A stretch of 32,000 bases of DNA from Candidatus Methylomirabilis oxygeniifera (GCA_000091165.1 FP565575.1:1530001-1562000); one strand, 5' to 3'. Positions 1 through 18,785 are shown, numbered from the stretch's first letter. The notes: a model not told the origin generated them from the letters alone. Numbers and translations are program-made.

Positions 1-3000
1 GCCGGTCCCTTTGTAGTCAGCCTTGACCTGTTGCGGGGCCAGACCATCGTTCATCGCGGGACCGACCATGGCAAGGTGTGGGTCGCGATCACAGGCAGTC
101 AGCAGGCGCTTCAACCACCCTGGCGTAACGACCACGTCACCCGACAGCAGGATCACCGGCTCGTCACCCGACGATTGGAGCAACCGGTTGAGCAGTTGTA
201 CGGCAGGTACGTCAGCGGTTCCGATCTGCCACCCATCCGGACACGATGGCTGAGGCGGTGGAGCGCATCCGTTCCCGTTGCCGGTCGAAGGACTGATCGT
301 AATAGCTAACGGCTGGTTCGTGTGTTGGACCAGCGACGACCACAACGGGGTAATTCCATGACCGTTGGGAATAATGATGGCGCTGAACGGGGTCTCTCCC
401 ATGACGGCGGGCTCGCACCGGCCGGGATCCTCGCTAATCTCCCGCCACCACCGGCCGTCACTGTCACACCGGTGGTCAGCACCGACGTCAGGAAGCGGAA
501 CCGACAACGGCGCGCTCGGAGCCGACTGTGGCGGAAAGCGATACCCTTTTTCGTATAGCGCATCGTCGGGGATACCCCACTTCGCCTTGAACAACCCCCA
601 GTTGCGCATGAGGCTCTGACGGTAGTCGATCTTCGCAGTCTTGAACGTTTGGCTCCCAGTATGGTGGACAAAGACATCCAGCGCGATCCGCGCCCGAAAA
701 CCGACCTGGAATGCCCGGATACAGAAGTCGTCATCCTCGAAGTTGCCGCTGCCGAACTGCTCATCCAGCCCCCCGATACGCGCAATGACCGCTTTGCGCG
801 CAAGCAGGCAGAAGCCGACAACCCTGGTCGCCTCTCGACTTTGCCCGTCCTGGCTTTGAGCCCACCCCGCCGCAAATACGGCAAGCCCCTCACGTCCCTG
901 ATATGAGGTCTCCCGCACCAGTTGGGGACCCGACACATAATTGGACATCGGTCCAACGATACCGACATCGGGATGCGCGTTGAAAACCCGGAGCATCCGC
1001 GTGAGCCACCCTTCGGTGACAACGGTGTCGTTGTTGAGCAACAGCACATACTCGCCTTTGGCCAGCGCAAGCCCCTGATTGTTGCCGGCGGCAAACCCTC
1101 GATTCGTCGCATTTGCAACGATCCGGACATTGTCGTGAGCGGCCATGTACTCACGCAAGTAGGCGAGCGTACCGTCGGAAGAGGCGTTGTCCACAATGAT
1201 GAGCTCATGCGGCTCTGGAGTGTGCGCCTGGATACTCGCTAGGCATGGCCGCGTATGCTCAAGCCCATTGTGGGTGAGGATGATGATCGACGTGAGGCGT
1301 GAGGCGTGAGGCGTGAGAGGCGATTCGGTCTTCGGCATTCGGCCTTCCGCCTGCTGTGTCGTTACTTCAGCCTTCAGCCTTCGGCCTTCGGCCTTCATTG
1401 TTGGCTTAAACCAGTTGATACCCCACAACTCCACCGGGCTGGGAACGTTGCCGACGCCATAGTGGACTTCGAGTTTCGCGTACAGTTTGTCCGTACTCTC
1501 CTGAACAAGCCGCGACGTCTTCGTCTCCGCCTCCGACTTGAAACTGACCTGACCTTCGTGGTGAACGAAGGTGTCGGTGGCCACAAGCAATGTATAGCCC
1601 TTCAGCCGCAATCGCCACGACAGATCAAGGTCGTCGTTTCCCAGGAACAGCTCCTCATCCAGCAGACCGACCTCATTCAACGCCCGACGTGGCAACATCA
1701 GGCAGAAACCAATAAGGAGTTTAGTCTCTACGGCGCATCCTCGATTCACCCGCGCCATCTGTTCGGCGATCTCCGCGACGGTACGGCCGTTCTTCAGTTC
1801 AGGTTTATAGAGTTGATATTTTTGCAGCCCCGCCACGTAATCTGAAACCGGTCCGACCGCTCCTACCCCTGGTCCGAAATGGCCGATTAATCGATCCACC
1901 CACCCAGGCGTCACAACGGTATCGGGGTTGAGCAAAACTACGTATTCGCCGGATGACGCGCGGATCCCTTGATTGCAGGCGGCTGAAAACCCGACATTGT
2001 TCTGGTTGAGGATCGTCGTGATCCGGCCCTGATACTCGTGCAGGATCGACCTCGTCTTATCGGTTGAGACGTTATCGATGACGATCAGGTCGGTTGCCGG
2101 CCTACTCTCCTTCAACACGCTGTCGAGACAGGCTCGGATAGTGGAAGCAGAGTTATACGTTACGATCACGATCGACGCGATTACGGGCTCACCGGTAGTC
2201 GGTCTCTCGGCAACGCCCAGAGAGGAGGGCGAGGGCGGACTATAGGCCATTACTCGTCCTGCGTCTGTTTTGACATATGTGCCATCGCGTGTGATCACGA
2301 AATCCGGTATCGCCTTATCCGACCACTTCCGGCGAAGTCGTTCGAGATTGCGCGACTCTTGCCGAACTCGCTCCGATCCGCTCTGAGATTCATAATGAAT
2401 AACTACGCTCGTTGGTTCGTAGACCAAGCGCCATCCGAGACCCTGGAGCTTCAAGCAAAAGTCCACATCCTCACGCCCATTCCAATAGTTCTCATCGAAC
2501 CCCCTAACCTGCTCAAAAGCAGTTCTTCGCACTAGGAGACATGCGGCGGTTAGCGCCTGATACGTGCGAGGTTCATTCGCCCCTGGCAGGTGCGCTATCT
2601 GTCGGTAGTAGATGTGGCCTGCGTTTAGCCCCATGGACTCCCTTTGATCATCGATAATAATGACTCCCGCATGTTGAATGGTCCCGTCAGGGTACAGCAG
2701 CTTACTGCCGACTGCCGCAACGGCTTGATCGGCATCGAGGACCGCGACAAGCGGCTCAAACCAATTCGGCTGCACCTCAGTGTCGTTATTGAGAAATAAC
2801 AAGTTCGTGCCCACGGCAGCGCCTGCACCCTGATTACACGCATGCGCAAAGCCCATATTGTCGGTGTTGACGACCGCCCGCAGTCGTCCGGCGTCCTGCT
2901 CCAGGCGTAGAAACTCGGTTGTGCCATCGGAAGAACCGTTATCGACAACGATGAGTTCGTATTGACCAGCAGGAGTATGGCGACGGACAGCCTCTAAACA

Positions 3001-6000
3001 TTGGCGGGTCAGGTCCAGGCGGTTAAAGACGGGGATGATGATGGATGTGAGATGTGGATCGAAATTCGCACATCGAGGTTCCTCCGTGTCGGGGGCCAGC
3101 GCTTTTCCGTCCACAATCGCCAAGTTGTCCGTCGCTACGGCATTGCTCGGTTCCAGCGAAAGGACTTTCCGATAAAACGCCCGTGCCTGGTCGAATCGGC
3201 CGATCTCGGCGTAGCAATTGCCGACAATGAGGAGGGTCTCCACATCATGAGGCGCGTGCCGCAATACGGTCAGGTAGCTTTCAACAGCCTCGGTATAGCG
3301 CGCACTATCAAGACACAGACGGCCTAACAGCTTCAGCGCATCGATGTCGGCGGAATTCGCCGCCAAGACGCGACGGATAGACGCCTCCGCCTCCTCGCCG
3401 CGGCCCATATGGAGATAGACAGCCGCCAGATTGAGATGGGCGGCAGGGTAATCGGGGGCCAGGACCGTAGCTTTCACGAACTCGCGGCGGGCGGCCTCCA
3501 CGTCGCCGAGTTGCAGCAGGACGTTGCCATGGGCGACGATCAGCTCGGGATCGTGCGGAGCGAGTTGCACCGCCTGACTGAGCGCCTGCGCGGCGGCAGG
3601 CGGATCACCCTGAGCGAGGTGCTGCTCGGCCTGACGGATTTGTTCGATGACGTTGGCCGATCGGACGAGACTCGTCTGGACATCGCCAGAATCGGCTGAT
3701 ACCGATTGATATCTCAATATGGTCGCCGTCTCGTACCTGGAACTGACTTCTGACCGATCATTCATTGCTCGCGCGGTATTTGGGGTCGGAGCTGATGCCT
3801 CGCACGCTCTAGACGCAGCATTGTATACCTCAAGTGTGAGGGCGGCGATCCGATCCCAATTGTATTGATCGCGTAAATGGGTCTGCAGGGCCTGCCGACG
3901 ACGGCTATCGAACGCGTGATTATGATATGCGTCCCGGACTGCTCGTCGAATCGACTCAACATCGGCCGGATTACAGTAATAGGCCGCATCCCCAAAGTAC
4001 TCCGACTCAGCGCCTCGATTGCCCATCACGACACTACACCCCGCAAGCGCAGCTTCCATACTCGCAATGCCAGCGCATTCCCACCAACTTGGCAACGCAT
4101 GCACTCGTGCCGCCGACCTCGCTGAGGCAAGCAGCTCATCATCCAGTCGTCCCACGAAATGTGTCCCTTCAGGCGCAAATCGTCGACAGAGTTCGAGATA
4201 CGATGGAAGAACCTGGTCGCCGGCCGCCACAATCGGGAGCCCGGCGTCACGAAGCGCTATCAACAACATAAGCTGATTCTTTCTGGGCTCAACTCGTCCG
4301 GTTATCAGTACGAAGTCTCGGACGCCAAATCTATTGACGAATGGTTCAGGAGAAACGACACGAGATGGAACATCCGCACCAGTTGGAACGATCGAGGATC
4401 GAGGCATCCGCGAGATCTTTTCATCAAAAGTGCTCATCAAGAGCCGTTCTTCACCGGCGCTGATGGCAATGAGATGATCCACACCCTGTAAGATCTCCCC
4501 CTGCTCCTCTTCATACGTCGCATACAACTTATTGCCGCCCTTTCGGCTCACGCCGAACAACGATAAGGTGCCGCCGGCAATTTGCCGAAGCGCCTTAGCC
4601 AGATGCTTACGACTCTTTGTCTTGGCGATGGCGCCAGGCACCGCTACTTCCCCCCAGTAGCTCTCACTTCGGTCCCAGAAAAATGGGGTGAGAATGATCG
4701 GCGCCCGTGTCGCTCGCCGCAAGGCTGCCGCTTGGTGCAGGGTCACTTCCGGGCGCAGCAAATTGAACAGGTTAATGAGATCGTAGCCGGCGGGGTTGGG
4801 GTTCAGATCACAACAGATATCCACAATGACCCCTAGTCGCTCTAAACCCTCCTTCAGGCGCAACATATGAGTCGTATCACCGCCAGGAATGGTAAACGCA
4901 TCAGGACGATTGACAAAAAGGACACGCAGCATCGATGAAGCGACACCTCCGCGATCAACGCTCCCTGGACGTTGCAAGATCGGCGCATCGCCGTCGTCAG
5001 CGCAAGGGACTGAATCCCCTCGCCTGGCATGTCGCAGATCGTCATCGGCAAGACTTGTAAATACCTGTACGCCGTATGGTTTGAAGGAGTCAGATCTTAC
5101 GGTGGAACCCTCTTGGTCCGTCATCGGTCGAGATGCAGCGCCTCCAGACGCACAAGAGGGGAGACTGTATACTCTAACCCTCTTGGTACCGGTAGCCACA
5201 CACCTTCCATCAGGTTGAGCTACTACGTCGGCAATAATTCTACCCAACCACACATGGCAGAAGATCTCATGATTGCGCTCTAGGCAGCGAAATCGCTCTG
5301 GACCGCTCTGGTACTCATAATGGATGACGACACTCTTCGGCTCGTACACTGAGAGCAGCCCACGTTCCTGAATCTTCAGACAGAGGTCGACATCTTCAAA
5401 GCTGTTCCAGTATCTCTGATCGAATCCCCCTACTTGCTCAAAGGCGGATCGGCGAACCAACAGGCAGGCACCCGTCAGCGCCTGGTAGGTACACGACTGA
5501 TTAGCCTCGCGCAGATCAGCCGGTCTCTTATAGTAGACGTGCCGCGGACAGAGTTTTCCTGTCCCCACCTGATCATCCACGATGACCATACCGGCGTGTT
5601 GTATCGTACCATCTGGAAACAGTAGCTTGCTCCCTACAATACCAACCTCAGGATCAGCCTCAAGAACAGTGACAAGCGGCTCAAACCAATTCGGCTGCAC
5701 CTCAGTGTCGTTATTGAGAAATAACAAGTTCGTGCCCACGGCAGCGCCTGCACCCTGATTACACGCATGCGCAAAGCCCATATTGTCGGTGTTGACGACC
5801 GCCCGCAGTCGTCCGGCGTCCTGCTCCAGGCGTAGAAACTCGGTTGTGCCATCGGAAGAACCGTTATCGACAACGATGAGTTCGTATTGACCAGCAGGAG
5901 TATGGCGACGGACAGCCTCTAAACATTGGCGGGTCAGGTCCAGGCGGTTAAAGACGGGGATGATGATGGATGTGAGATGTGGATCGAAATTCGCACATCG

Positions 6001-8625
6001 AGGTTCCTCCGTGTCGGGGGCCAGCGCTTTTCCGTCCACAATCGCCAAGTTGTCCGTCGCTACGGCATTGCTCGGTTCCAGCGAAAGGACTTTCCGATAA
6101 AACGCCCGTGCCTGGTCGAATCGGCCGATCTCGGCGTAGCAATTGCCGACAATGAGGAGGGTCTCCACATCATGAGGCGCGTGCCGCAATACGGTCAGGT
6201 AGCTTTCAACAGCCTCGGTATAGCGCGCACTATCAAGACACAGACGGCCTAACAGCTTCAGCGCATCGATGTCGGCGGAATTCGCCGCCAAGACGCGACG
6301 GATAGACGCCTCCGCCTCCTCGCCGCGGCCCATATGGAGATAGACAGCCGCCAGATTGAGATGGGCGGCAGGGTAATCGGGGGCCAGGACCGTAGCTTTC
6401 ACGAACTCGCGGCGGGCGGCCTCCACGTCGCCGAGTTGCAGCAGGACGTTGCCATGGGCGACGATCAGCTCGGGATCGTGCGGAGCGAGTTGCACCGCCT
6501 GACTGAGCGCCTGCGCGGCGGCAGGCGGATCACCCTGAGCGAGGTGCTGCTCGGCCTGACGGATTTGTTCGATGACGTTGGCCGGTAGAGCCTCTTTCGA
6601 CGGCATCGCCAGGATGAGAAACTGAAGGGTCTTCAACTCCAGGAGCTCATCTGCGCCGACGTTCTTAATAACGATTTTACCCGTATCAATGTTGACACTA
6701 CCGCCGTCGCACTGAATGTTCCTGCAACGAACATCCGGAGCGCTTACGACCTTGAGTACGTTATAGCCGGTTTCGCGAAAGAATCGCTTTATTTCCTCGA
6801 GGGTAAAAAAACGCAGATGGGTCACGTCCAACAGGCCAATTTTTTCATACCGCCAGCGTCCATGAGCCAACTCATTCATTACCCAGAGATTGCGGATGTT
6901 CGGAATACTGGCAATAATCTGCGCACCAGGCGCAAGAAACGGCTTGAGCCTGATCATGGCGGACCAGGGATCCACCATATGCTCCAAAACGTCGCCGAGA
7001 ATGACGGCATCTATTGAGCGTTCGGCAATACCCTCGGCGGCAAAATCGATATCCTCCATACGCTGAGCATACACCTTGTCGATGTGTTGCTCCGCGATGT
7101 GGGCCGCTGCTACGTTGAGCTCGACGCCAAGAACATACGCTTCAGGATAGACTTTCTTGATGAGAGCTCCGGTGGCTCCAGCGGCGCAGCCGATCTCTAA
7201 AACCAGGCGCGGTGGCCTAACGAACATTTCTACGAGATCCCTGCGCGGATGAGTATATTCGCTCTTCACCCCGCCCTCATCGCCTTTTGCCAGCTCCTCC
7301 CAGACATAGTCCTTGTTCGGAGATAACGTGGCATTTCGTTCGCGCTTCAGCGCCATTTCCGTCATGAGCGCGACCACGCGCTCCGTCGCCTTACCGTCCT
7401 GACCGACATTGTAATAATCCGCTTTTGCCCGCATGGCCTCCACGAGACCCTCACGAAAAGAGGCATTTTCAAGCAGTAAGCGAATCGCCGTCGAGAGCTC
7501 TGGGGGTTCCACATCCAGGATGCCGGATCCCCCGTCGAAACTCGGCCCTAACCGCAACCCCGACGTGTCGACCAGATTGATCGCAGGCACGCCTGCAAGC
7601 AGGGCCTCTAAGGACAGATTGGAATCGACTGAAATGACGATATCGGCGCTGGCGACTAAGGCTTCCGTATCTGCTGTGGCGTAGATGACCCGTTCTCTCG
7701 GTAGATGTAAATCGTCCGCAATTTGCGCCACCGTCTCCCGGCCGGCCGCTGCATTGGCAGGACGATCTTTAATGAGAAAGTTTACCGAAATCCCATCCCG
7801 AATAAGTGTGTGGCATGCGGATAAAAAGACGCGTAGCGTCCTTCTATAGACATCGGCATCAGAAATCGCGGTCAGTTTTGCGTCCCAGGTCGCACCGAAC
7901 ACGACTAACGGCAATGCTCGATGTAAGCCGTACTTGGTGAATAGACCGCACTTAATCTGCTCGCGCTGTTCCCGCAAAGCGGGATAGATATCCCATGCGG
8001 GATTTCCCGTTACTCGGATACGCTCTTCCGACACCCCGGCGTCCAGAAGGCTCTCGGCGCCTCGCTTGCCGAAAACAGCCACCACATCGCTGAGCACTGC
8101 CGAATGCACCGTGTAGGCCTTCACGAGCGCAGTCGCATGAGAGAGATGCAGCGTGGGAATGCGATGCGTTTTGGCCCACTCTACCGCACATCTGGGAACG
8201 GACGTCCAGTCCTCGTTGACAACTACCAGCTCAATGAAATACTCACGCCATGCTTTCTCTAGAGCCTCAAGAACGATCATTCCACGCTGAACGCACGGCA
8301 ACAGCGCATCGGTGATGAGCGGCTTCACACGTTCCGCATCCAGGTGAAGGGTTTCGGCAAAAGATACCCAGCCCTGCTCCGACATAGCGCGGGAAGCATC
8401 ACGATTCACTGCTGCCGCTTTCTGCCCGATGGTGTGGATTTCACCAGCGTCAAGCAATTCCTCCAAGGCGACGACGGTGCCTCCAACCGCTGACACCAGG
8501 CGGCGTAATTCTACGGTGATAGCCCCACGCAGGGTCAAGACGATCCGAGGTCGCGTAGCGAGATACTGCTCCAACACGGGAACGGACTTCGGCCACAAAA
8601 GGGAGACCAGCGCGGTTTGCTTCAT
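1..8625 (-). CDS. Giant multidomain glycosyltransferase/methyltransferase fusion protein (at least 2875 aa; 3' end runs off the window). Domain order: GT-B-like, SAM-MTase, TPR, GT2, GT4, TPR, GT2, GT2, GT2, GT2-like.
   Basis: ATG 8625-8623 overlaps the TGA of the upstream gene (ATGA) and is preceded by an in-frame TGA at 8640-8638. I translated the minus frame whose codons start at coordinates divisible by 3 and found no stop down to base 1 (last codon = bases 3-1). The ORF track lists no complete minus-strand ORF in that frame anywhere in 1-8625, as expected if the frame never closes inside the window. Motifs read: RIRVTGNPAWD (GT-B/2-epimerase-like, ~8010); VLEIGCAAGATG..DAVILGDVLEH (class I SAM MTase, ~7200-6980); TPR-like repeats (6584-~6010 and 3659-~3085); IIIPVFNRLD..VVDNGSSDGT..FLNNDT (GT2, ~5960 and ~3035); MLRVLFVNRPD..GRVEPRKNQ (GT4, 4932-~3800); IVIVTYNS..VIDNVSTD..LLNPDT (GT2, ~2180); IIILTHNG..IVDNASSDGT..LLNNDT (GT2, ~1290); VILLSGDVVVTPGWL (GT2-like, ~400-1). 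Confidence 0.8.
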   Translation of the reverse strand, partial: MKQTALVSLLWPKSVPVLEQYLATRPRIVLTLRGAITVELRRLVSAVGGTVVALEELLDAGEIHTIGQKAAAVNRDASRAMSEQGWVSFAETLHLDAERVKPLITDALLPCVQRGMIVLEALEKAWREYFIELVVVNEDWTSVPRCAVEWAKTHRIPTLHLSHATALVKAYTVHSAVLSDVVAVFGKRGAESLLDAGVSEERIRVTGNPAWDIYPALREQREQIKCGLFTKYGLHRALPLVVFGATWDAKLTAISDADVYRRTLRVFLSACHTLIRDGISVNFLIKDRPANAAAGRETVAQIADDLHLPRERVIYATADTEALVASADIVISVDSNLSLEALLAGVPAINLVDTSGLRLGPSFDGGSGILDVEPPELSTAIRLLLENASFREGLVEAMRAKADYYNVGQDGKATERVVALMTEMALKRERNATLSPNKDYVWEELAKGDEGGVKSEYTHPRRDLVEMFVRPPRLVLEIGCAAGATGALIKKVYPEAYVLGVELNVAAAHIAEQHIDKVYAQRMEDIDFAAEGIAERSIDAVILGDVLEHMVDPWSAMIRLKPFLAPGAQIIASIPNIRNLWVMNELAHGRWRYEKIGLLDVTHLRFFTLEEIKRFFRETGYNVLKVVSAPDVRCRNIQCDGGSVNIDTGKIVIKNVGADELLELKTLQFLILAMPSKEALPANVIEQIRQAEQHLAQGDPPAAAQALSQAVQLAPHDPELIVAHGNVLLQLGDVEAARREFVKATVLAPDYPAAHLNLAAVYLHMGRGEEAEASIRRVLAANSADIDALKLLGRLCLDSARYTEAVESYLTVLRHAPHDVETLLIVGNCYAEIGRFDQARAFYRKVLSLEPSNAVATDNLAIVDGKALAPDTEEPRCANFDPHLTSIIIPVFNRLDLTRQCLEAVRRHTPAGQYELIVVDNGSSDGTTEFLRLEQDAGRLRAVVNTDNMGFAHACNQGAGAAVGTNLLFLNNDTEVQPNWFEPLVTVLEADPEVGIVGSKLLFPDGTIQHAGMVIVDDQVGTGKLCPRHVYYKRPADLREANQSCTYQALTGACLLVRRSAFEQVGGFDQRYWNSFEDVDLCLKIQERGLLSVYEPKSVVIHYEYQSGPERFRCLERNHEIFCHVWLGRIIADVVAQPDGRCVATGTKRVRVYSLPSCASGGAASRPMTDQEGSTVRSDSFKPYGVQVFTSLADDDLRHARRGDSVPCADDGDAPILQRPGSVDRGGVASSMLRVLFVNRPDAFTIPGGDTTHMLRLKEGLERLGVIVDICCDLNPNPAGYDLINLFNLLRPEVTLHQAAALRRATRAPIILTPFFWDRSESYWGEVAVPGAIAKTKSRKHLAKALRQIAGGTLSLFGVSRKGGNKLYATYEEEQGEILQGVDHLIAISAGEERLLMSTFDEKISRMPRSSIVPTGADVPSRVVSPEPFVNRFGVRDFVLITGRVEPRKNQLMLLIALRDAGLPIVAAGDQVLPSYLELCRRFAPEGTHFVGRLDDELLASARSAARVHALPSWWECAGIASMEAALAGCSVVMGNRGAESEYFGDAAYYCNPADVESIRRAVRDAYHNHAFDSRRRQALQTHLRDQYNWDRIAALTLEVYNAASRACEASAPTPNTARAMNDRSEVSSRYETATILRYQSVSADSGDVQTSLVRSANVIEQIRQAEQHLAQGDPPAAAQALSQAVQLAPHDPELIVAHGNVLLQLGDVEAARREFVKATVLAPDYPAAHLNLAAVYLHMGRGEEAEASIRRVLAANSADIDALKLLGRLCLDSARYTEAVESYLTVLRHAPHDVETLLIVGNCYAEIGRFDQARAFYRKVLSLEPSNAVATDNLAIVDGKALAPDTEEPRCANFDPHLTSIIIPVFNRLDLTRQCLEAVRRHTPAGQYELIVVDNGSSDGTTEFLRLEQDAGRLRAVVNTDNMGFAHACNQGAGAAVGTNLLFLNNDTEVQPNWFEPLVAVLDADQAVAAVGSKLLYPDGTIQHAGVIIIDDQRESMGLNAGHIYYRQIAHLPGANEPRTYQALTAACLLVRRTAFEQVRGFDENYWNGREDVDFCLKLQGLGWRLVYEPTSVVIHYESQSGSERVRQESRNLERLRRKWSDKAIPDFVITRDGTYVKTDAGRVMAYSPPSPSSLGVAERPTTGEPVIASIVIVTYNSASTIRACLDSVLKESRPATDLIVIDNVSTDKTRSILHEYQGRITTILNQNNVGFSAACNQGIRASSGEYVVLLNPDTVVTPGWVDRLIGHFGPGVGAVGPVSDYVAGLQKYQLYKPELKNGRTVAEIAEQMARVNRGCAVETKLLIGFCLMLPRRALNEVGLLDEELFLGNDDLDLSWRLRLKGYTLLVATDTFVHHEGQVSFKSEAETKTSRLVQESTDKLYAKLEVHYGVGNVPSPVELWGINWFKPTMKAEGRRLKAEVTTQQAEGRMPKTESPLTPHASRLTSIIILTHNGLEHTRPCLASIQAHTPEPHELIIVDNASSDGTLAYLREYMAAHDNVRIVANATNRGFAAGNNQGLALAKGEYVLLLNNDTVVTEGWLTRMLRVFNAHPDVGIVGPMSNYVSGPQLVRETSYQGREGLAVFAAGWAQSQDGQSREATRVVGFCLLARKAVIARIGGLDEQFGSGNFEDDDFCIRAFQVGFRARIALDVFVHHTGSQTFKTAKIDYRQSLMRNWGLFKAKWGIPDDALYEKGYRFPPQSAPSAPLSVPLPDVGADHRCDSDGRWWREISEDPGRCEPAVMGETPFSAIIIPNGHGITPLWSSLVQHTNQPLAITISPSTGNGNGCAPPPQPSCPDGWQIGTADVPAVQLLNRLLQSSGDEPVILLSGDVVVTPGWLKRLLTACDRDPHLAMVGPAMNDGLAPQQVKADYKGTG
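1292..1319. repeat. Heptanucleotide tandem repeat: GTGAGGC x3 plus GTGAGAG
   Basis: Read directly: cgtgaggcgtgaggcgtgaggcgtgagagg. It lies in the linker between two GT2 domains of the giant ORF (minus strand encodes ..PLTPHASRLTS..). Confidence 0.85.
1365..1397. repeat. Heptanucleotide tandem repeat: CTTCAGC x2, CTTCGGC x2, then partial CTTCA
   Basis: Read directly: cttcagccttcagccttcggccttcggccttca. Same interdomain linker (minus strand encodes ..MKAEGRRLKAEV..). Confidence 0.85.
2746..3659. repeat. Copy A of a 914-bp perfect direct repeat inside the giant ORF (partner 5671..6584; offset 2925 bp = 975 codons)
   Basis: Boundary comparison gives mismatches at 2745 vs 5670 and at 3660 vs 6585. 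Lines between the boundaries read identical. ORF-track peptides 3001..3327 = 5926..6252 and 3023..3217 = 5948..6142 are letter-identical. Confidence 0.9.
5671..6584. repeat. Copy B of the 914-bp perfect direct repeat (encodes the TPR block plus the first ~100 aa of a GT2 domain)
   Basis: Same evidence as copy A. Flanking sequence to the left of each copy (2330-2745 vs 5255-5670) is still homologous at protein level but diverged (AVLDADQAVAAVGSKLLYPDGTIQHAG vs TVLEADPEVGIVGSKLLFPDGTIQHAG). Confidence 0.9.
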
Positions 8626-9881
8626 GACTGACTCTCTTCAAAAGCCTGAAAATACTTTTCCAATAGGTTTCGGGTGAAGTCGTATTCCATTCCTGCCCCC
8701 AAGTTCACCCCCCTGAAATTCAGGATACCGGCCACTTTCTCTGGGTGGCACCAACTCTGAGCGATAGCAGATGTCTTCCGGTCGAGCTGTTCCTGCTCCC
8801 ACCACATCTCGAACGTGCGCGCGTGGCGTTCCTCCAGAAAGGAGGTAAGCCTGAGAATCTGCGGGTCTTTCCAAAAGCTCGCCCAGAGAAAGAAAAATAC
8901 GACGCGATTTCGCTCATGATCGAGGTGCCGATTTAACACCGACTTCCACTCTTCCGGCGGCATAGGTAGATATGGCGATAGCGCCTCCAACGAGGCGTTT
9001 GCGTGCAGAATATTGTTCAACCGGTTGTTACGCTCCAGCCAGGCGTGGTTTACGTCCTTGCCGGGAAACTTGTCCAACACAACCATAAACCGACCAGTCG
9101 TCACGCTGCTCAAATGAAAAGCCAGGTCCGTTTCAAGAAACATGCACAAATCGAATAGCTTATTGTCTACCCCAATCCAGGACAGATGTCGCCGCCACCA
9201 GTACGCACTATTGAGAGGTCGACTATCAAAAGGAGATCGATATAGACTGTAGTTGTTCAAGAGGCCGTACGGGACAATCGCGTGAATGGTGAGTCCTAAC
9301 TCATCTGCCGCAGCGGCAATGTCCTCTACCCCGACATACATTGAAAAATCACTACATGTATTATTTCGAATAAGCTCCTCAATCGTGATACGTCGACCGT
9401 GTATATATTCCAGGTGATCCAGAGAATGAAGATCAAAAATAATACGCCCGCGATCGGCGATTTTTGCTGTCCATTTTTCGAGTACCTGACGCCAATGCGG
9501 AAAATGAACCATTACATGAAGCGCCATGATGGTGTCAAAATCGGCTGCTCTGCCCGGTAGATCGAGCACATCGCCTTGTAATAATGTGATTGGGGTATCT
9601 CCGGCGAGACGCCGACATTCATCCAGCATAGCGTGAGAGCTGTCCACGCCTGTAACTCTTAAACCTTTTCGCGCCAAGGGCAAGGAGGCGCGACCTGTGC
9701 CGATGCCCACATCCAATATCTTTTGACCCACCGTGAAGGTCTCGCATAGCCCGGGCTCAATAAGATGATACAGACGCCCCGCCCCCGAATAGTCACGCAT
9801 GCGCTGCGAATACCAGCCCACCATCCGCGGATCTTTCCACGCATCGGTCTTCCATTGTATTAACTGTGTCGCATTCGTCAT
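8622..9881 (-). CDS. Class I SAM-dependent methyltransferase with a ~230-aa C-terminal region of unknown function
   Basis: ILDVGIGTGRASLPLARKGLRVTGVDSS is SAM motif I, followed by DFDTIMALHVMVHF. ATG 9881 is preceded by GGGAGGGGGG at about 5 nt; the track's upstream start at 9902 is less likely. The stop overlaps the start of the giant ORF (ATGA). Confidence 0.8.
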   Translation of the reverse strand: MTNATQLIQWKTDAWKDPRMVGWYSQRMRDYSGAGRLYHLIEPGLCETFTVGQKILDVGIGTGRASLPLARKGLRVTGVDSSHAMLDECRRLAGDTPITLLQGDVLDLPGRAADFDTIMALHVMVHFPHWRQVLEKWTAKIADRGRIIFDLHSLDHLEYIHGRRITIEELIRNNTCSDFSMYVGVEDIAAAADELGLTIHAIVPYGLLNNYSLYRSPFDSRPLNSAYWWRRHLSWIGVDNKLFDLCMFLETDLAFHLSSVTTGRFMVVLDKFPGKDVNHAWLERNNRLNNILHANASLEALSPYLPMPPEEWKSVLNRHLDHERNRVVFFFLWASFWKDPQILRLTSFLEERHARTFEMWWEQEQLDRKTSAIAQSWCHPEKVAGILNFRGVNLGAGMEYDFTRNLLEKYFQAFEESQS

Positions 9882-9962: not shown

Positions 9963-11021
9963 TTACTCCAGGAGGTCCCAGCTCAACGGGGTACCCTTCT
10001 TGATCGTCTTGCGGGCCCGGCGCTCCAAAACGAGCGGTAAGAACTTCGGTAGAAGGCCATGGCCCGGCCGGATGGCCCGCACGTTTACCGCGGAGAATGC
10101 CTCGCCGGCATCCATATCCTGCACCACAAACAGCGATCGGCGGAAGATCAACGACTTCTTTTCGTCTTCGGTGGGCCCATAGCTTACCTTGCCAAGGGCT
10201 TGCCAAGCACGCTTGGTTTCTATGACCAACTGCATCATCTCCTCGGGCTCCATGGAAAAAGCTGAATCGACACCGTCATCTGTTCTGTGCAGGGTAAGAT
10301 GTTTCTCGATGACCGTCACCCCCAGCGCCACGCTGGCCACCGCCACACCTACACCCATCGTGTGATCCGATAAGCCTACTTCACAATCAAACAGCTCGCG
10401 CATGTGCGGAATTGTAAGGATATTGGCGCTGGTCGGTGACGCCGGATAGGCGCTGGTACATTTCAACAGTACCAGTTCGCGGCAGCCGGCCTCACGGGCG
10501 GCGCGAATGCTCTCGTCGAGTTCGGCAACCGTCGCCATACCCGTCGACATCATGATCGGCTTACCGGTTGCCGCTACCTTGCTGATCAGCGACAGGTCGG
10601 TATTTTCGAACGAGGCGATCTTATAGCAAGGCACATCGAGAGACTCCAGGAACTCTACTGCGGTTGCATTAAAGGGAGTACTGAAGGCCAACAGTCCCAA
10701 CTTGCGGGCACGATCAAAAATGGGCTTGTGCCACTCCCAAGGTGTGTAGGCCTCTTGGTACAGCCTGTAGAGCGACTTACCTTGCCAGAGACTATCGGGA
10801 TCGGAAATAGAGAATTTGGCCTCCTCCAGATCCAAGGTCATCGTGTCGGCGGTATAGGTTTGGATTTTCATGGCGTGTGCCCCAGCCTTGGCTGCCGCTT
10901 CCACTATCGCAAGCGCCCGGTCCACAGACTGATTGTGGTTGCCGGACATCTCGGCGATGATCAGCGGGGGGTCGCTGGCGCCAATCCTCCGACCTGCCAA
11001 CGAAATGGCTGACTTAGGCAT
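9963..11021 (-). CDS. pseI: Pseudaminic acid synthase (NeuB family)
   Basis: N-terminus PLIIAEMSGNHNQSVDRALAIVEAAAKAGAHAMKIQTY and a C-terminal SAF-like region (VRAIRPGHGLLPKF). It is the last gene of a pseB/C/F/G cluster. Confidence 0.88.
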   Translation of the reverse strand: MPKSAISLAGRRIGASDPPLIIAEMSGNHNQSVDRALAIVEAAAKAGAHAMKIQTYTADTMTLDLEEAKFSISDPDSLWQGKSLYRLYQEAYTPWEWHKPIFDRARKLGLLAFSTPFNATAVEFLESLDVPCYKIASFENTDLSLISKVAATGKPIMMSTGMATVAELDESIRAAREAGCRELVLLKCTSAYPASPTSANILTIPHMRELFDCEVGLSDHTMGVGVAVASVALGVTVIEKHLTLHRTDDGVDSAFSMEPEEMMQLVIETKRAWQALGKVSYGPTEDEKKSLIFRRSLFVVQDMDAGEAFSAVNVRAIRPGHGLLPKFLPLVLERRARKTIKKGTPLSWDLLE

Positions 11022-11607
11022 TGGGCTTCTCCGTCAGGATCCGAAAGCTCTTCATCAGTTTTTCTACGGGAGTATCCCACCCCCGCGTGAGCAGATGTGC
11101 TACCCGCTCGCGATCCTTGAGCCGGTGGCAGGAGCCCCCGGGCGGTTGTGGGACGGGAGTAACACTTCCGGCGCGAATCGCAGGCCAGCTTTCTCGGAAC
11201 AGATCCTCGACGGCCGCGCTCAGGCGAGCATAGCTGGAGGCGAGCGTGTCTCCTGGCTCTGGAAATACCTTACGCCGCGCGACAAGCGGGCCGGTATCCA
11301 GACCGCCATCCACGAAATGAATGCTGACGCCCTTGGGGGTGTCGTCGACAAAGGACCACAGATTGGGATCCGAACCTCGGTTCCAGGGCAGGTACGAGAT
11401 GTGTAGATTAACGATCTGGCTGGGCATCGCCCACAACCAATCCTGCCGGATTAGGTGCCGATAGCCGTAGCTGACCAGAAAGTCGTATTTATTCGCCACA
11501 AGGGATGCCGCCAGCAAGGGCGCATCTGTCCGGGTAACCTCATCGCCCACCCCTGTCAGGTAGCCTTCGAGGCTCGGCCTTTCGGAGCCAAGAAGGAGCA
11601 CGCGCAC
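11014..11607 (-). CDS. Formyltransferase-family protein (N-terminal Fmt/PurN/ArnA-like catalytic domain only), occupying the usual pseH position
   Basis: NLHISYLPWNRGSDPNLW matches the N-x-H-x-S-L-L-P-x-x-R-G formyltransferase signature, and FVDGGLDTGPLVA supplies the catalytic Asp region. GTG 11607 lies 6 nt after AGGAGG. I reject the track's start at 11655 because it would overlap pseG by 47 nt. Confidence 0.7.
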   Translation of the reverse strand: MRVLLLGSERPSLEGYLTGVGDEVTRTDAPLLAASLVANKYDFLVSYGYRHLIRQDWLWAMPSQIVNLHISYLPWNRGSDPNLWSFVDDTPKGVSIHFVDGGLDTGPLVARRKVFPEPGDTLASSYARLSAAVEDLFRESWPAIRAGSVTPVPQPPGGSCHRLKDRERVAHLLTRGWDTPVEKLMKSFRILTEKPNA

Positions 11608-11608
11608 C

Positions 11609-12715
11609 TCAAGCCTCCTGCATGGCGATGGATACGCGCGTCGCGCCGAGGCCATCCACCCGTTCCAGCGCGCGCGCCGACATGCGTGTAAGCGCAGCCC
11701 GCGCCTCGATGAGTTCGCGGATTGCGCGCTCCATGGCGTCGACCGTTACCTGACCCGTGTGCCCGAGCCAGCGGATCCCTCTGCGCCGAGCAAGTTCAGA
11801 CGCAATAGGTCGTTGGTTGTCCGCAAGGGTAATCACCAGTGACGGCAGTCCCAAGCAGCAGCGCTCCCAGGTGGTAGTGCCACCAGCGCCGATGGCGAGA
11901 TCGGCTCGGACCATCAGTGGCGCAAGGGTCGGCAAGCCGCTGTGAAGATGAACGTTAGCGTACCCAGCCGTTTGCTGGCAAATACTTTCCGCGTGGGGGC
12001 TGCTCCCATTGACCACCACATCCAGATCGATATCGGAGCGGCCCAGCGTAAGAAACGCTTCGATTGCCATGCCGGTTAAGTTACCCACATCAGCCCCACC
12101 AAAGTAGACTAAGATGCGCCGGATCGGTCCGTCGCGAGGAGGAACCCGATCGTGCAGTTCGGCATACTCGGGCTGCAGGAGCGCATACTGCGGCCCCAGC
12201 ATCAGTCCGCAGTGCGCAGGCACCTTCCCGGCATAGCGCGCTTCACCATTGCTGAAAAGATTCTGGTCCAACAACAGGTCGCAGTCATGGGAACGATCAG
12301 CAAGGTCGTCAATGACCATGAGGCGTTTGGTGTGAGATCGTAAGGCAGACTCCCATCTCGCATCCAGGGCATAGTGATCGATAATAAGCCAGTCGACTGT
12401 ACCAAATATCCCGCCGATCGCCTCGCTAGTTTCTTCTGCGTCTTGTTCCCATGAAGCGCCAAGCCAATGAGCATGCTTCAGCAGGTTAACTCCATCAGTT
12501 GTGTCGTCAGCGCGAAACTCGGACATTACGGGCAGCCGAAACACACCACATCCCCGCGCAGCAATTTCCTGGCACAAATGGCCGGGATGCTCCCGACTCA
12601 CAAACAATATCTCCGCACCCTTCCCCTTCAAGGCCATCGCCAGGGTGAGACACCGCATCACATGGCCCATACCGATGGTCAAGGAGGCGTCGGCACGAAT
12701 GATGATACGGCTCAT
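11609..12715 (-). CDS. pseG: UDP-2,4-diacetamido-2,4,6-trideoxy-beta-L-altropyranose hydrolase
   Basis: MSRIIIRADASLTIGMGHVMRCLTLA is a typical PseG N-terminus, and the C-terminal half is GT-B-like (GAGGTTTWERCCLGLP). ATGA overlap with the pseF stop. Confidence 0.85.
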   Translation of the reverse strand: MSRIIIRADASLTIGMGHVMRCLTLAMALKGKGAEILFVSREHPGHLCQEIAARGCGVFRLPVMSEFRADDTTDGVNLLKHAHWLGASWEQDAEETSEAIGGIFGTVDWLIIDHYALDARWESALRSHTKRLMVIDDLADRSHDCDLLLDQNLFSNGEARYAGKVPAHCGLMLGPQYALLQPEYAELHDRVPPRDGPIRRILVYFGGADVGNLTGMAIEAFLTLGRSDIDLDVVVNGSSPHAESICQQTAGYANVHLHSGLPTLAPLMVRADLAIGAGGTTTWERCCLGLPSLVITLADNQRPIASELARRRGIRWLGHTGQVTVDAMERAIRELIEARAALTRMSARALERVDGLGATRVSIAMQEA

Positions 12716-13572
12716 CGTTCACCTATTCGCATGGGGTAGTGTTCGTATGCAGGAATGTCGGTAGCCTGCCGCACTATCTTGGCCTCGGTGGGTATCTGCT
12801 CACTAAAGCGGAAGATGCTCGTCCCCGCATCAGCCGAGACGCCGGTTTCCCGGATCACTTGACGCATGTGCTGATCGGCGCCGGCGCCGCCTAAGGCAAT
12901 TGCCTTGTAGATGAGTTCGGCACGACACCAGTCGTCCGGCGTATCAATATCGACGCTACGCCACGCTGGGATTTCAATCCCGCAACCATGACTGTGAACA
13001 GGTTTACCTGATAACCATGTACCAGGATTGCCCCAATAGAACTGGCCGGCGTCATAGAAAGCAGGTTCGAGATCTTGCGTTCTGGCGTGCACATAGTTGT
13101 TATAGAACGGGCTCACTGTTCCATCTGGTGACAACCGAAGCGCGCGCTGAATCGCGGAGGGAAAGGCCACAACCGGGAACACATAATCCAGTTTTGTTTC
13201 TACCAGAATGGTCATCGCGGCTTGAAGATCCTCAATTCGTAACATCGGAACACAAGGATAGACGCAACAGACAGCTTGGATTATGCTGACGGGCACTTGG
13301 CAGTTCTCGATGGCGTGGGCCACCACAGGGACAGTCGGCGTATGGTCATCGGCTAACTCATCAGGCCTGATAAATGGGATCTCCGCTCCCCACGTTCGCG
13401 AGACCTCTGCTATTTCCACGTCATCAGTCGATACGATGACTTTATCAAAGAGATTGCTCGCTTTTGCGGTGAGGATAGCGTGGGCAATCATGGGCTTGCC
13501 TGCAAACTCGCGGATGTTCTTGCGAGGGATTCTCTTGCTGCCGCCGCGTGCCGGAATGATGGCAACATTCAT
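12712..13572 (-). CDS. pseF: Pseudaminic acid cytidylyltransferase (CMP-Pse synthetase) with a ~50-aa C-terminal tail
   Basis: MNVAIIPARGGSKRIPRKNI is the cytidylyltransferase P-loop-like motif. ATG 13572 overlaps the pseC TGA (ATGA) and follows AAGGAAG. I reject the track's start at 13680. Confidence 0.85.
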   Translation of the reverse strand: MNVAIIPARGGSKRIPRKNIREFAGKPMIAHAILTAKASNLFDKVIVSTDDVEIAEVSRTWGAEIPFIRPDELADDHTPTVPVVAHAIENCQVPVSIIQAVCCVYPCVPMLRIEDLQAAMTILVETKLDYVFPVVAFPSAIQRALRLSPDGTVSPFYNNYVHARTQDLEPAFYDAGQFYWGNPGTWLSGKPVHSHGCGIEIPAWRSVDIDTPDDWCRAELIYKAIALGGAGADQHMRQVIRETGVSADAGTSIFRFSEQIPTEAKIVRQATDIPAYEHYPMRIGER

Positions 13573-14723
13573 AAGAGCTTCCTTAATGCCTCCACCACCC
13601 GATCCTGCTCGTCTTCGGTCAGGGCAGGATAGAGCGGCAGAGTGATGGCCTCTTCGCCGTGAGCCTCGGCTTCCGGACACTGTCCAGGGCCGAAACCCAG
13701 GTTGCGGTAATAGGGCTGCAAGTGCACCGGCATGTAGTGTACGTTTACGCCAATGTCCGCAGCGCGCAGGGCCTCGAAGATTTCCCGATGGGTCTTTGTG
13801 AGCGTCTCTCGGTTCAAGCGCACCACATAGAGGTGGAAGGCGGAATAGTTTTCCGGCTTCACGGTCGGCAGCCGCAAAGGTAGCCCTTGGAGCGCGTCGT
13901 CATAGCGAGCAGCCAGGACATTACGGCGCTTCACCCATTCATCCAGTTGCGCGAGTTGACTCAAGCCCAAAGCCGCCTGGATGTCGGTCATGCGGTAGTT
14001 GAAACCCAACACCTGTTGTTCATAGGCCCACGGTCCAGCGGATGGCTGTGCCATGTGCTCGGGCTCGCGGGTGATCCCGTGAGTGCGCAGCTTGTCCATG
14101 CGCCATGCGTGTTCTTGGCTGTTAGAAAGCGCCATGCCGCCTTCGCCAGTGGTGATGATCTTGACCGGATGGAAGCTAAACACGGTGATGTCCGACCAGC
14201 GGCAACTACCCACCGGCTCGCCGTAGCGGGAGGCGCCGATAGCATGAGACGCATCCTCGACGACCTTGAAGCCGAACTCTTGCGCCAGCTCCCAAATCGC
14301 TTCCTGATCGGTGGGTTGGCCGGCGAAGTGTACCGGCACCACCACCTTAGGCAGACGCGTGTCTCGCTTGGCCTTAACGAGCTTCTTACGCAGCCGAGGC
14401 ACGCTTAGGTTCCACGTATCGGGGTCGATGTCGACAAAGTCTACCTCGGCGCCACAATAGCGCCCGCAGTTAGCCGATGCCACAAAGGTATTAGGTAACG
14501 TCCAGAGTCGATCACCCGGTCTAAGGTCCAGCGCCAGACAAGCAATGTGGAGAGCCGAAGTACCGGAATTCGTAGCGACGGCGTACCTCGCTCCCACCTT
14601 GGCGGCAACCGCCTGTTCAAAGCGGGGCACCATAGGCCCCTGGGTGAGCCAATCTGAACGCAACACTGCGACCACCGCGTCGATGTCTGCTTGGCTGATA
14701 TCCTGTCGGCCGTAAGGGATCAT
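13569..14723 (-). CDS. pseC: UDP-4-amino-4,6-dideoxy-N-acetyl-beta-L-altrosamine transaminase (DegT/DnrJ/EryC1 family)
   Basis: MIPYGRQDISQADIDAVVAVLRSDWLTQGP..ATNSGTSALH..SFHPVKIITTGEGG (PLP-Lys region). Confidence 0.9.
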   Translation of the reverse strand: MIPYGRQDISQADIDAVVAVLRSDWLTQGPMVPRFEQAVAAKVGARYAVATNSGTSALHIACLALDLRPGDRLWTLPNTFVASANCGRYCGAEVDFVDIDPDTWNLSVPRLRKKLVKAKRDTRLPKVVVPVHFAGQPTDQEAIWELAQEFGFKVVEDASHAIGASRYGEPVGSCRWSDITVFSFHPVKIITTGEGGMALSNSQEHAWRMDKLRTHGITREPEHMAQPSAGPWAYEQQVLGFNYRMTDIQAALGLSQLAQLDEWVKRRNVLAARYDDALQGLPLRLPTVKPENYSAFHLYVVRLNRETLTKTHREIFEALRAADIGVNVHYMPVHLQPYYRNLGFGPGQCPEAEAHGEEAITLPLYPALTEDEQDRVVEALRKLL

Positions 14724-14726
14724 GTG

Positions 14727-15864: not shown

Positions 15865-15879
15865 GCAAGCCGTGTGCCA
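15865..15879 (-). promoter_or_regulatory. Sigma54 (RpoN) -24/-12 promoter upstream of pseB
   Basis: The minus strand reads TGGCAC-ACGGC-TTGC, a full match to the TGGCAC-N5-TTGC consensus. It sits ~140 nt upstream of the pseB ATG (15725). The 15-mer is identical to 29830..29844. Confidence 0.75.
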
Positions 15880-17166: not shown

Positions 17167-17411
17167 TGCGATCGTCTCCTCCTGGATTTTTTATTGGTTT
17201 CGCCTTACCCGATGGGACGCTCATTAATCATGTGCGAGACGACGAAGTGGTTGAGTTGCCCTATCTCGACACATATCCCAGAATTACCCCGTCTTGATTA
17301 ACTATCGACTGATCGAGAAGCTCGCTTGAGCAAAAAATCCCGACCGGTTTTCGACAGCGATTCTTTAGCAGATGCTTCCCCATTGCCTTGGGGCCCCGTC
17401 CCGTCACTCCA

Positions 17412-17440
17412 TTGACCTGCTGGCTCGTCCCTGATACACT
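17412..17440 (+). promoter_or_regulatory. Sigma70-like promoter of Uma2 paralog 1 (TTGACC-17 nt-TACACT)
   Basis: Read directly. The promoter is duplicated together with the gene at 19106..19134. GGAAGGAG RBS at 17453-60. Confidence 0.6.
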
Positions 17441-17463
17441 ACCTTCAATCGCGGAAGGAGTTC

Positions 17464-18740: not shown

Positions 18741-18785
18741 TCAGCTTCCGTGAATGAGAACAGGGGATCGAAGCAGATGTGGGCG

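Follow-up and report, generated by a model that had tools for sequence, protein, structure and literature searches.

A predicted ten-domain glycosyltransferase gene beside the pseudaminic acid and flagellar genes of Candidatus Methylomirabilis oxyfera

What could a single bacterial polypeptide with eight sugar-modifying enzyme domains and two protein-binding arrays do, and is such a polypeptide really encoded? The question is raised by a 32,000-nucleotide stretch of the genome of Candidatus Methylomirabilis oxygeniifera (GCA_000091165.1, FP565575.1:1530001-1562000; this whole stretch is called the window below). At its left end, one minus-strand frame is open from an ATG at position 8625 to base 1, downstream of genes for the biosynthesis of pseudaminic acid (Pse). 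A reading of the sequence alone had proposed that the frame encodes a fused assembly-line enzyme acting on flagellin or another surface protein. We find that it is, very probably, a genuine multi-domain glycosyltransferase (GT) gene, here called the giant gene, and that flagellin is its probable target.

The giant gene and its domains

Translation of the window yields 0 stops in the 2875 codons between ATG 8625 and base 1, as against 54-132 stops in the remaining five frames over the same 8.6 kb, and the probability of so long a stop-free run by base composition is about 1e-47. The claim of an uninterrupted open reading frame (ORF) therefore stands. So does the explanation offered for its omission from the window's ORF track, namely truncation at the edge, as the gene runs off the end of the window. 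Extended leftwards, as the earlier reading had advised, the frame reaches its stop 85 codons beyond the edge, giving a complete gene of 2960 codons and a product of 2960 aa. A 2960-aa gene call is present in GCA_009026205.1 on contig WBTX01000009.1, which is identical to the window across all 2875 codons; for our reconstruction, the last 85 residues were taken from a 99.9% identical Logan contig. An exact look-up of the reconstructed product returned CBE68841.1, KAB2959628.1, and UniProt D5MGG0 (Ca. Methylomirabilis oxyfera, a methane-oxidizing bacterium of the NC10 phylum), each annotated just as "glycosyltransferase." The identical single ORF is thus held by two deposited assemblies, the 2.75-Mb complete genome and a later metagenome-assembled genome (MAG).

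The start at ATG 8625 agrees with the relatives described below, 20 of which align their residue 1 with residue 1 of the giant protein. Matches to sigma70-like promoters and to terminators inside the ORF show no excess over expectation. The predicted protein has a mass of 324.4 kDa and no hydrophobic segment of transmembrane grade (maximum 19-residue hydropathy, 1.56), and from its sequence it is predicted to be a soluble, cytoplasmic multi-enzyme.

Domains were assigned by per-segment Pfam scans, with NCBIfam, hhalign, blastp, and AlphaFold (AF2) models searched with Foldseek as supplements. In the list, SAM is S-adenosylmethionine and TPR is the tetratricopeptide repeat.

1..8625, minus strand: giant glycosyltransferase gene, codons 1-2875 of 2960 (CBE68841.1 / D5MGG0)
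7327..8625, minus strand: GT-B-fold domain, aa 1-433, candidate nonulosonic-acid (Pse) transferase; conserved N-terminal module of its family
6598..7248, minus strand: class I SAM methyltransferase, aa 460-676 (Methyltransf_23, E 9.6e-15, 55.1 bits; PDB 3cc8)
6028..6582, minus strand: TPR array 1, about 5 repeats, aa 682-866 (Pfam TPR families)
5236..5976, minus strand: GT2a, aa 884-1130 (PF00535, E 3.7e-26; DNGSSD, LFLNNDT, and EDVDLC intact)
4933..5130, minus strand: linker, aa 1166-1231, without a family match
3790..4932, minus strand: GT4 (GT-B fold), aa 1232-1612 (PF00534, E 1.1e-12; EX7E at aa 1516)
3103..3657, minus strand: TPR array 2, aa 1657-1841, an identical copy of array 1
2311..3051, minus strand: GT2b, aa 1859-2105, motifs intact
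1426..2181, minus strand: GT2c, aa 2149-2400 (PF00535, E 3.2e-29; DNVSTD, LLNPDT, DDLDLS)
526..1296, minus strand: GT2d, aa 2444-2700 (PF00535, E 3.3e-28; DNASSD, LLLNNDT, EDDDFC)
1..369, minus strand: GT2-like e, aa ~2745-2960 (aa 2753-2875 in the window), no Pfam hit

The order is therefore GT-B, class I methyltransferase, TPR, GT2a, GT4, TPR, GT2b, GT2c, GT2d, and a divergent GT2-like domain e. This bears out the domains and the order first read from the sequence, with Pfam matches to Epimerase_2 (weak, for the GT-B domain), Methyltransf_23, TPR, GT2, GT4, TPR, and GT2 three times over. The four domains GT2a to GT2d score 91-102 bits each on PF00535 (cut-off 23.3) and belong, by score and motifs, to glycosyltransferase family 2. 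Their D-x-S-x-D motifs lie at aa 920, 1895, 2184, and 2479, the NND-type motifs at aa 968, 1943, and 2528 (GT2c carries the variant LLNPDT), and the ED-x-D-type motifs at aa 1077, 2052, 2331, and 2630. The GT4 assignment is based on 48.3 bits on PF00534 (cut-off 26.4) together with ECAGIASME at aa 1516. The methyltransferase domain has motif I, LEIGCAAG, at aa 476, as expected of a class I SAM-dependent enzyme, and its model matches PDB 3cc8 with a TM-score of 0.80 at 32% identity (Foldseek). For TPR array 2, the best stretch in a phmmer search of the PDB (aa ~1672-1837) matches consensus TPR proteins and the TPR region of human OGT.

For the tenth domain, the earlier description as GT2-like holds in homology and fails in Pfam, where domain e has no hit. 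Domain e is homologous to the other GT2 domains along its entire length: hhalign gives a probability of 98.5% (E 1.7e-15, 202 columns), and blastp against GT2d gives E 1.6e-9. Its motifs are changed throughout: DNxSxD reads ISPSTG, NND reads SGD, and EDxD reads LAD. Because DNxSxD and most of the acidic motifs are lost, domain e is probably non-catalytic or very divergent; its AF2 model has a pLDDT of 36.6. Judged by sequence, seven catalytic domains would still be active: the GT-B domain, the SAM methyltransferase, GT2a to GT2d, and the GT4 domain.

The boundary before GT4 is of interest for the history of the gene. The Pfam-silent segment aa 1166-1262 has the lowest third-codon-position GC content of the ORF (0.50, compared with 0.56-0.72 in the domains), and the GT4 domain starts at Met1232 (MLRVLFVN) with a typical GT4 N terminus. 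These two features are suggestive, though only suggestive, of a former intergenic spacer before Met1232.

Could the frame nevertheless be a chain of ordinary genes? Frameshifted gene calls on one Logan contig (L023, from SRR2467140; contigs and loci are given by such numbers where they must be told apart) made a really split ORF a candidate, which we rejected. Only two differences separate this contig from the window gene, both of them 1-nt indels in homopolymers (CC/CCC and GGG/GG), at L023 ~431 and ~1102 (window ~1438 and ~766), with 0 substitutions in 1.9 kb. Since the differences are confined to homopolymer length and one of them breaks GT2d mid-fold, read error is the probable cause of both. 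Were the CC allele the true one, translation from upstream would terminate on the TGA within an in-frame ATGA, and Met2410 (MKAEGRR) would open a new ORF, a well-formed coupled gene junction. Separately, the 90% protein cluster that contains the giant protein is represented by a 359-aa frameshifted fragment, and clustered searches never return the full-length protein.

A feature that the sequence-only reading had missed bears more directly on the length of the gene. The ORF contains a direct repeat of 933 nt at 99.36% identity (blastn), with the following copies.

5652..6584, unstranded: repeat copy 1, TPR array 1 and the N-terminal half of GT2a (blastn)
2727..3659, unstranded: repeat copy 2, TPR array 2 and the N-terminal half of GT2b (blastn)

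The core of about 915 nt is 100% identical (codons ~681-985 and 1656-1960), and the offset between copies is exactly 2925 nt, or 975 codons, in frame. On the 5' side, identity outside the repeat is random, whereas on the 3' side it drops abruptly to ~65% (nt) and 57% (aa), such that GT2b is identical to GT2a over its first ~100 aa and 57% identical over the rest. Because perfect identity gives way so sharply to ~65%, we read the repeat as the signature of a recent gene-conversion or recombination (or duplication) tract between two older paralogous TPR-GT2 modules.

The repeat also gives rise to an alternative in which the length of 2960 codons is in part a product of assembly: the true gene, or much of the population, would hold one TPR-GT2 cassette (1985 aa), or the copy number would vary between cells, and the segment made up of the second half of GT2a, the linker, and GT4 would be absent or lie elsewhere. 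A perfect repeat of ~915 nt exceeds short reads and cannot be spanned by them, and four independent short-read Logan contigs (L002-L005, drawn from no fewer than four runs), one of them shared by 8 samples, end exactly at it; the copy number, and with it the figure of 2960 aa, therefore rests on how the deposited assemblies resolved the repeat, which counts against taking the full length for granted. Moreover, since the 2925-nt offset is in frame, the products of deleting or duplicating the TPR-GT2-GT4 cassette stay open, so that its loss or gain in the population, to give 1985 or 3935 aa, is possible. However, the assemblies do contain the unique middle segment, and a copy of the repeat has to lie at each of its ends, from which we infer that the deposited order (left, repeat, middle, repeat, right) is the only linear path. 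The same 2960-aa product is found in both the complete genome and the later MAG, and the fall in identity past the identical tract fits conversion between two real paralogous modules. We thus consider the one-cassette alternative very improbable. A mis-resolved repeat could alter only the number of cassettes; it would not break the ORF up into ordinary genes. Regardless, the repeat calls for careful handling by assemblers and annotators of the M. oxyfera reference genome.

Genomic setting, relatives, and probable fusion history

If the giant gene is real, what surrounds it? The neighboring features that matter for its function are the following.

8622..9881, minus strand: class I methyltransferase CBE68842.1 (419 aa); its stop and the giant ATG overlap as ATGA
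9963-11021, minus strand: pseI, NCBIfam equivalog above cut-off
11014-11655, minus strand: formyltransferase-like gene (Formyl_trans_N; ArnA/Fmt-like) at the expected place of pseH
11609-12715, minus strand: pseG, NCBIfam equivalog above cut-off
12712-13572, minus strand: pseF, NCBIfam equivalog above cut-off
13569-14723, minus strand: pseC, NCBIfam equivalog above cut-off
14727-15725, minus strand: pseB, NCBIfam equivalog above cut-off
15865..15879, minus strand: sigma54-type -24/-12 consensus TGGCACACGGCTTGC, ~140 nt upstream of the pseB ATG
22071-22523, minus strand: hemerythrin-domain gene between flgK and flgL
29830-29844, minus strand: identical 15-mer TGGCACACGGCTTGC, with the same spacer, upstream of flgF

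The CMP-pseudaminic acid pathway block (9963..15725, minus strand) is co-oriented with the giant gene. The earlier statements that the giant gene is coupled by ATGA to the upstream methyltransferase gene and that pseB to pseI lie on the same strand behind a sigma54 promoter consensus both proved accurate. The 15-mer TGGCACACGGCTTGC has 2 exact matches in the window, where 0.03 would be expected, and both are intergenic and on the coding strand, which suggests that the glycosylation operon may be co-regulated with the flgF rod and ring genes. The pse operon lacks the acetyltransferase PseH and has a formyltransferase-fold protein in its place, which suggests an N-formylated derivative of pseudaminic acid. 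The same pseG-formyltransferase-pseI arrangement recurs in two related loci (L019 and L027).

The methyltransferase gene between pseI and the giant gene is called from a later ATG than the GTG-start ORF. Proteins of this kind, of ~410-430 aa, consist of a class I methyltransferase domain and a C-terminal part of ~210 aa without a family match. A gene for such a protein, with the 4-nt overlap, precedes the GT-B gene in most of the related loci that we examined (L020, L021, L022, L025, and L026); in L027, the gene before the GT-B gene encodes 352 aa with no recorded Pfam domain. The ~420-aa methyltransferase is, from this pattern, an obligate-looking partner of the GT-B gene.

Still farther upstream, the minus strand carries flgF-G-A-H-I, a flgJ-like gene, flgM, flgN, flgK, the hemerythrin gene, flgL (TIGR02550, 171 bits), fliW, and csrA. 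Between csrA/fliW and the pse operon, positions 16447-20400 hold three plus-strand Uma2-family genes, a pentapeptide-repeat gene (16447-17166), and several ORFs without a family match, and look like an insertion-prone spacer between the flagellar and the glycosylation genes. Past the giant stop, a 563-aa GT2+TPR gene starts after 2 nt (L024 18886-20577; 63.5 bits on the SunS model), and a second, of 579 aa, lies at the contig end (L024 26298-28033), with an HDOD gene and two hybrid sensor kinase genes between the two. HDOD genes flank the whole region, at 30915-31871 of the window and at L024 20798-21676.

Relatives of the giant gene were sought exhaustively with the GT-B domain alone. This domain family comprises 951 representative clusters at E <= 1e-3 and 108 at E <= 1e-30, and the domain almost always begins at residue ~1. 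The lengths of the best 150 representatives are distributed as follows.

Below 400 aa (mostly fragments): 16 representatives
400-520 aa: 49 representatives
521-800 aa: 46 representatives
801-1400 aa: 14 representatives
1401-1700 aa: 17 representatives
1701-2100 aa: 7 representatives
2243 aa: 1 representative

No other carrier of the domain among these best 150 is as long as the M. oxyfera protein, the next having 2243 aa, so that this protein is the extreme of the series. The domain occurs as a stand-alone protein of 430-500 aa, for which no Pfam domain is recorded, and in fusions of 650-750, ~1600, ~1975, and 2243 aa. The GT-B plus methyltransferase unit (~680 aa) recurs at residues 1 to ~690 of proteins of 1580-1975 aa in Azonexus, Iodobacter, Chitinimonas, and metagenomes; identity to the relatives is 27-46% overall and mostly 37-45% in the 1580-1975-aa proteins.

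In four of the five homologue loci on long contigs, a flagellin gene adjoins. Iodobacter arcticus has pseB-C-F-G-I, a 421-aa methyltransferase gene, the 4-nt overlap, a gene for a 1585-aa homologue, and flagellin-flaG-fliD-fliS-fliT. On a JGI contig, the genes are ordered as in Iodobacter, but the homologue has 1975 aa and flagellin is preceded by a separate TPR protein of 1222 aa. In Burkholderia sp. H160, pseB-C-F-I and a 429-aa methyltransferase are followed by a 675-aa GT-B plus methyltransferase form, a TPR-GT41 protein, fliT, and flagellin. The locus of the 2243-aa member (P0134) contains pseG-formyltransferase-pseI and, farther on, flagellin-flaG-fliD-fliS-fliT-fleQ.

The second half of the giant protein has relatives of another kind. 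In Ca. Brocadia sapporoensis (L007 5966-18790), flgK, flgL, and a 372-aa TPR gene are followed by ORFs of 2723 aa (pyruvyltransferase, FkbM methyltransferase, GT9, TPR, two GT2, GT4, TPR) and 1549 aa (four GT2 and TPR). This is an equally extreme, apparently undescribed pair of flagellar-locus glycosylation proteins in anammox bacteria. Geobacter-type contigs carry a 375-aa TPR gene before a 1407-1453-aa multi-GT2 ORF that is 44-45% identical to GT2b-GT2c, with lower identity continuing through GT2d; a Flagellin_N protein and a TPR plus GT9-like protein are encoded near such multi-GT ORFs. Overall, the multi-GT2 block of the giant protein is 41-52% identical to the Brocadia and Geobacter-type loci. 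A Clostridia MAG has its GT2 homologues in ordinary, unfused genes. Other large multi-GT/TPR proteins have 3676, 2948, and 2440 aa. Of the relatives (Iodobacter/Azonexus/Chitinimonas, P0134, Burkholderia H160, and Brocadia), none joins the GT-B/methyltransferase block to the TPR/GT2/GT4 block, whereas the M. oxyfera protein does.

How did so long a gene come about? The junctions from TPR to GT2 are gene boundaries elsewhere, which supports the proposal, made from the sequence alone, that once-separate genes were fused. The series of lengths from stand-alone to fused forms and the separate TPR genes of the Brocadia and Geobacter-type relatives agree with it, and the comparison of split and fused genes that had been suggested shows TPR and GT2 blocks that are separate or partly fused in those relatives. 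The comparative evidence supports an origin of the giant gene by fusion, step by step, of genes that relatives still carry singly; the recent conversion or duplication event at the repeat would have come afterwards. The scans of the genome collection and of metagenomes gave only the distant Brocadia and Geobacter-type loci as relatives, and a sister pse locus (L019, with PseB >= 90% identical) has different genes after pseI and no orthologue for a split-versus-fused comparison. The supposed fossil Shine-Dalgarno sites at internal domain starts did not hold up, their spacing being weak: GGAGG lies 13 nt before ATG 4932, and GGAAGG lies 4 nt before ATG 1338.

Proposed flagellin glycosylation and its alternatives

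We consider it fairly probable that the giant protein is a flagellin glycosylation multi-enzyme. This function is the best supported because the locus is embedded in flagellar genes and relatives adjoin flagellin. The TPR arrays may dock the substrate protein, flagellin, by analogy with FlmG, Maf-1, and OGT. The N-terminal GT-B domain could then use CMP-Pse made by the operon, perhaps as an N-formyl derivative, and the GT2 and GT4 modules would add further sugars in succession. The methyltransferase domain and the separate 419-aa methyltransferase could methylate a sugar or the end of the glycan, as in WsaE or Klebsiella O7 ORF6. All of these steps would take place in the cytoplasm, ahead of flagellin export. 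Flagellin lysine methylation is known from other flagellar islands and represents an alternative role for the methyltransferases.

Several observations weigh against this proposal. Neither the window nor the 9 kb downstream, 41 kb in total, contains a flagellin gene, so that the proposed link to flagellin, which stands in the synteny of other taxa and fails in the local gene content, rests on the neighboring flagellar genes and on those other taxa. Flagellar genes are absent within 10 kb of the Azonexus homologue, whose locus has pse-type genes and the methyltransferase partner. That the GT-B domain uses CMP-Pse is tentative: among solved structures, its fold is closest to epimerases, and its score on the relevant transferase family model, NF046086, is far below the cut-off. 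Furthermore, three related loci (L021, L025, and L013) also encode a separate TPR plus GT-B-type protein, which could be the real Pse transferase there.

Comparison with characterized enzymes helps to place the giant protein. FlmG of Caulobacter crescentus is a flagellin Pse O-glycosyltransferase whose TPR has been shown to bind flagellin (PMC7591256). Like the giant protein, FlmG is soluble and cytoplasmic, combines a TPR array with a GT-B domain, and is encoded with Pse and flagellar genes; its system has been reconstituted in E. coli. Unlike it, FlmG has 596 aa, TPR followed by GT-B, and a single activity. The giant protein, compared here by architecture alone, has its GT-B domain at the N terminus, a methyltransferase between GT-B and TPR, and six further GT domains, and so departs from the FlmG arrangement. 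Maf-1 is reported to use a TPR domain for flagellin specificity, and GT2+TPR proteins of Clostridium are predicted flagellin glycosyltransferases (PMC13317340). The presumed job and the setting of Maf proteins, with pse or leg genes beside flagellin, are like those of the giant protein, whereas the fold is unrelated and the MAF_flag10/DUF115 domain is lacking: Pfam gives no hit to it in the giant protein, the scanned window ORFs, or the recorded hits of genes within 9 kb downstream. GmaR of Listeria is a GT2+TPR-type protein glycosyltransferase. It shares with the SunS-family peptide S-glycosyltransferases and the Clostridium enzymes, and with the giant protein, the pairing of GT2 with a substrate-binding part made of TPR or other helical repeats. 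These enzymes are, in contrast, single modules of 400-640 aa with GT2 before TPR, whereas the giant protein places TPR before GT2 within a ten-domain chain. It is the 563-aa gene downstream that is of the GT2+TPR type, like the SunS-family enzymes.

The enzymes that the giant protein resembles in its fused layout of a methyltransferase and several GT modules point to a different product. WsaE, which acts on the S-layer glycan of Geobacillus, is a multi-module methyltransferase and GT enzyme (PMC2943079), and Klebsiella O7 ORF6 has 1414 aa with a methyltransferase and several GT modules (PMC11231755). With WbdA-WbdD, these are large soluble proteins that, like the giant protein, combine a methyltransferase with at least two GT modules; in these enzymes each module in turn adds a sugar, and a methyl group caps the chain. 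The giant protein could therefore build a polysaccharide, or the glycan of an S-layer or other surface protein, on a lipid carrier. Such a role is in keeping with the presence of a methyltransferase and several GT2/GT4 modules in one soluble protein (PMC2943079; PMC11231755) and with the absence of an adjacent flagellin gene in M. oxyfera. It is also in keeping with the locus of one stand-alone family member (L026), where no flagellar gene was seen and the neighbors encode a WsaF-like rhamnosyltransferase and a GT2-GT2-GT4 protein of 1010 aa. However, the WsaE-type enzymes, which use coiled-coil rulers, have 2-3 catalytic modules and make lipid-linked glycans that are exported by Wzm/Wzt, whereas the giant protein has 7-8 catalytic domains, TPR arrays, a flagellar context, and no transporter genes nearby. 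Indeed, no gene for a Wzm/Wzt ABC transporter, an initiating phosphoglycosyl transferase, an O-antigen ligase, or an oligosaccharyltransferase was found in the 41 kb examined. The setting amid flagellar genes, with a sigma54 site common to flgF, the abutting flagellin genes in four of the five long-contig homologues, and the protein-binding TPR arrays all argue against assembly on a lipid carrier, which we consider unlikely.

If flagellin glycosylation is the function, which part of the giant protein would handle Pse? Pfam gives only Epimerase_2 (PF02350) for the N-terminal domain, at 31.3 bits against a cut-off of 30.6, and the match is partial, spanning profile positions 55-166. An AF2 model of aa 1-690, built on 20 homologues, has a mean pLDDT of 82.6 and shows a two-lobed GT-B fold followed by a class I methyltransferase. 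In Foldseek, the closest structures to the GT-B lobes are those of UDP-GlcNAc 2-epimerases and GT4 enzymes (TM-score ~0.64, 12-18% identity), and a sequence search of the PDB with the N-terminal domain returned no match. Residues H160, H163, K286, R288, and E340 of the domain are invariant. The most informative comparison is with the Tannerella forsythia Tanf_01245 / BFO_1060 family, Pse/Leg-derivative transferases validated by knock-out (PMC5420450). The corresponding NCBIfam model, NF046086 (BFO_1060), is the only family model for Pse/Leg transfer that recognizes the GT-B domain, and it does so with 38.8 bits (E 6e-10), aligning aa 176-421 to positions 102-360 of a 365-position profile, far short of the cut-off of 200 bits, so the match indicates distant homology and not membership. 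It is matched by 8 of 20 members of the giant protein's own family at E <= 1e-3. Like the giant GT-B domain, the Tannerella enzymes are soluble and are encoded with nonulosonic-acid pathways; unlike the giant protein, they are single-domain proteins of ~445 aa, and their sugar goes to a general O-glycosylation glycan and not to flagellin.

The N-terminal domain is the best candidate for a Pse transferase because it always follows pseI, because the Iodobacter homologue is the only glycosyltransferase between pseI and flagellin, because no Maf domain was detected in the neighboring genes examined, and because of the significant, if sub-threshold, match to the Tannerella family. We hold this assignment tentatively, at a little less than even confidence. 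Alternatively, the domain could be an enzyme of epimerase or hydrolase type or a transferase of another sugar, with Pse moved by a Maf or FlmG-type enzyme encoded elsewhere or by the downstream GT2-TPR proteins. The sole Pfam match and the closest solved folds point that way, as do the TPR plus GT-B-like proteins of several related loci and the two GT2+TPR genes, one of them SunS-like, downstream in M. oxyfera. Yet the Epimerase_2 match covers just 112 of 347 profile positions, and Pse synthesis by the established pathway (PseB, C, G, I, F) can do without an additional epimerase. In addition, the domain is always N-terminal in GT fusions and directly follows pseI, the 1585-aa protein of Iodobacter is the sole glycosyltransferase candidate between pseI and flagellin, and the match to the knock-out-validated Pse/Leg transferase family is significant (PMC5420450). 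A role other than Pse transfer is, in our judgment, rather unlikely.

A widespread glycosyltransferase family

Is this a new kind of system? The earlier reading had called a fusion of this size and composition not described. This is true of the literature searched, in which nothing specific turned up on the giant protein, on M. oxyfera glycosyltransferases or flagellin, or on giant GT fusions at flagellar loci; it is not true of the sequence, public since the 2010 genome, and comparable large multi-GT/TPR fusions exist. By its domains and relatives, the giant protein appears as the most extreme fusion in an uncharacterized, widespread, pse- and flagellin-linked glycosyltransferase family and not as a new category.

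The family itself provides the more interesting lead. The pair of a methyltransferase and a GT-B protein lies directly after pseI and beside flagellin in several phyla. To our knowledge, only the Maf and FlmG classes attach sialic-acid-like sugars to flagellin, and the cytoplasmic assembly of longer flagellin glycans is poorly understood. A bolder proposal, to which we give only a modest chance, is that the "~420-aa methyltransferase + GT-B(-methyltransferase)" pair makes up a third class of enzymes that glycosylate flagellin with nonulosonic acids, one that is independent of both Maf and FlmG. This initiator would, in M. oxyfera, have been joined to five further active GT modules guided by TPR arrays. 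If this is true, a complex methylated oligosaccharide would be assembled in cis on flagellin by a single polypeptide of 324 kDa, and recombination between the copies of the perfect 915-nt in-frame repeat could insert or excise a TPR-GT2-GT4 cassette, which would vary the glycan. Some members of the family are in named, likely culturable genera (Iodobacter, Burkholderia sp. H160) and are open to genetic testing. The giant protein, as a natural domain-by-domain fusion of a glycosylation pathway, is relevant to glyco-engineering and to the question of how an order of action may be encoded in a single chain.

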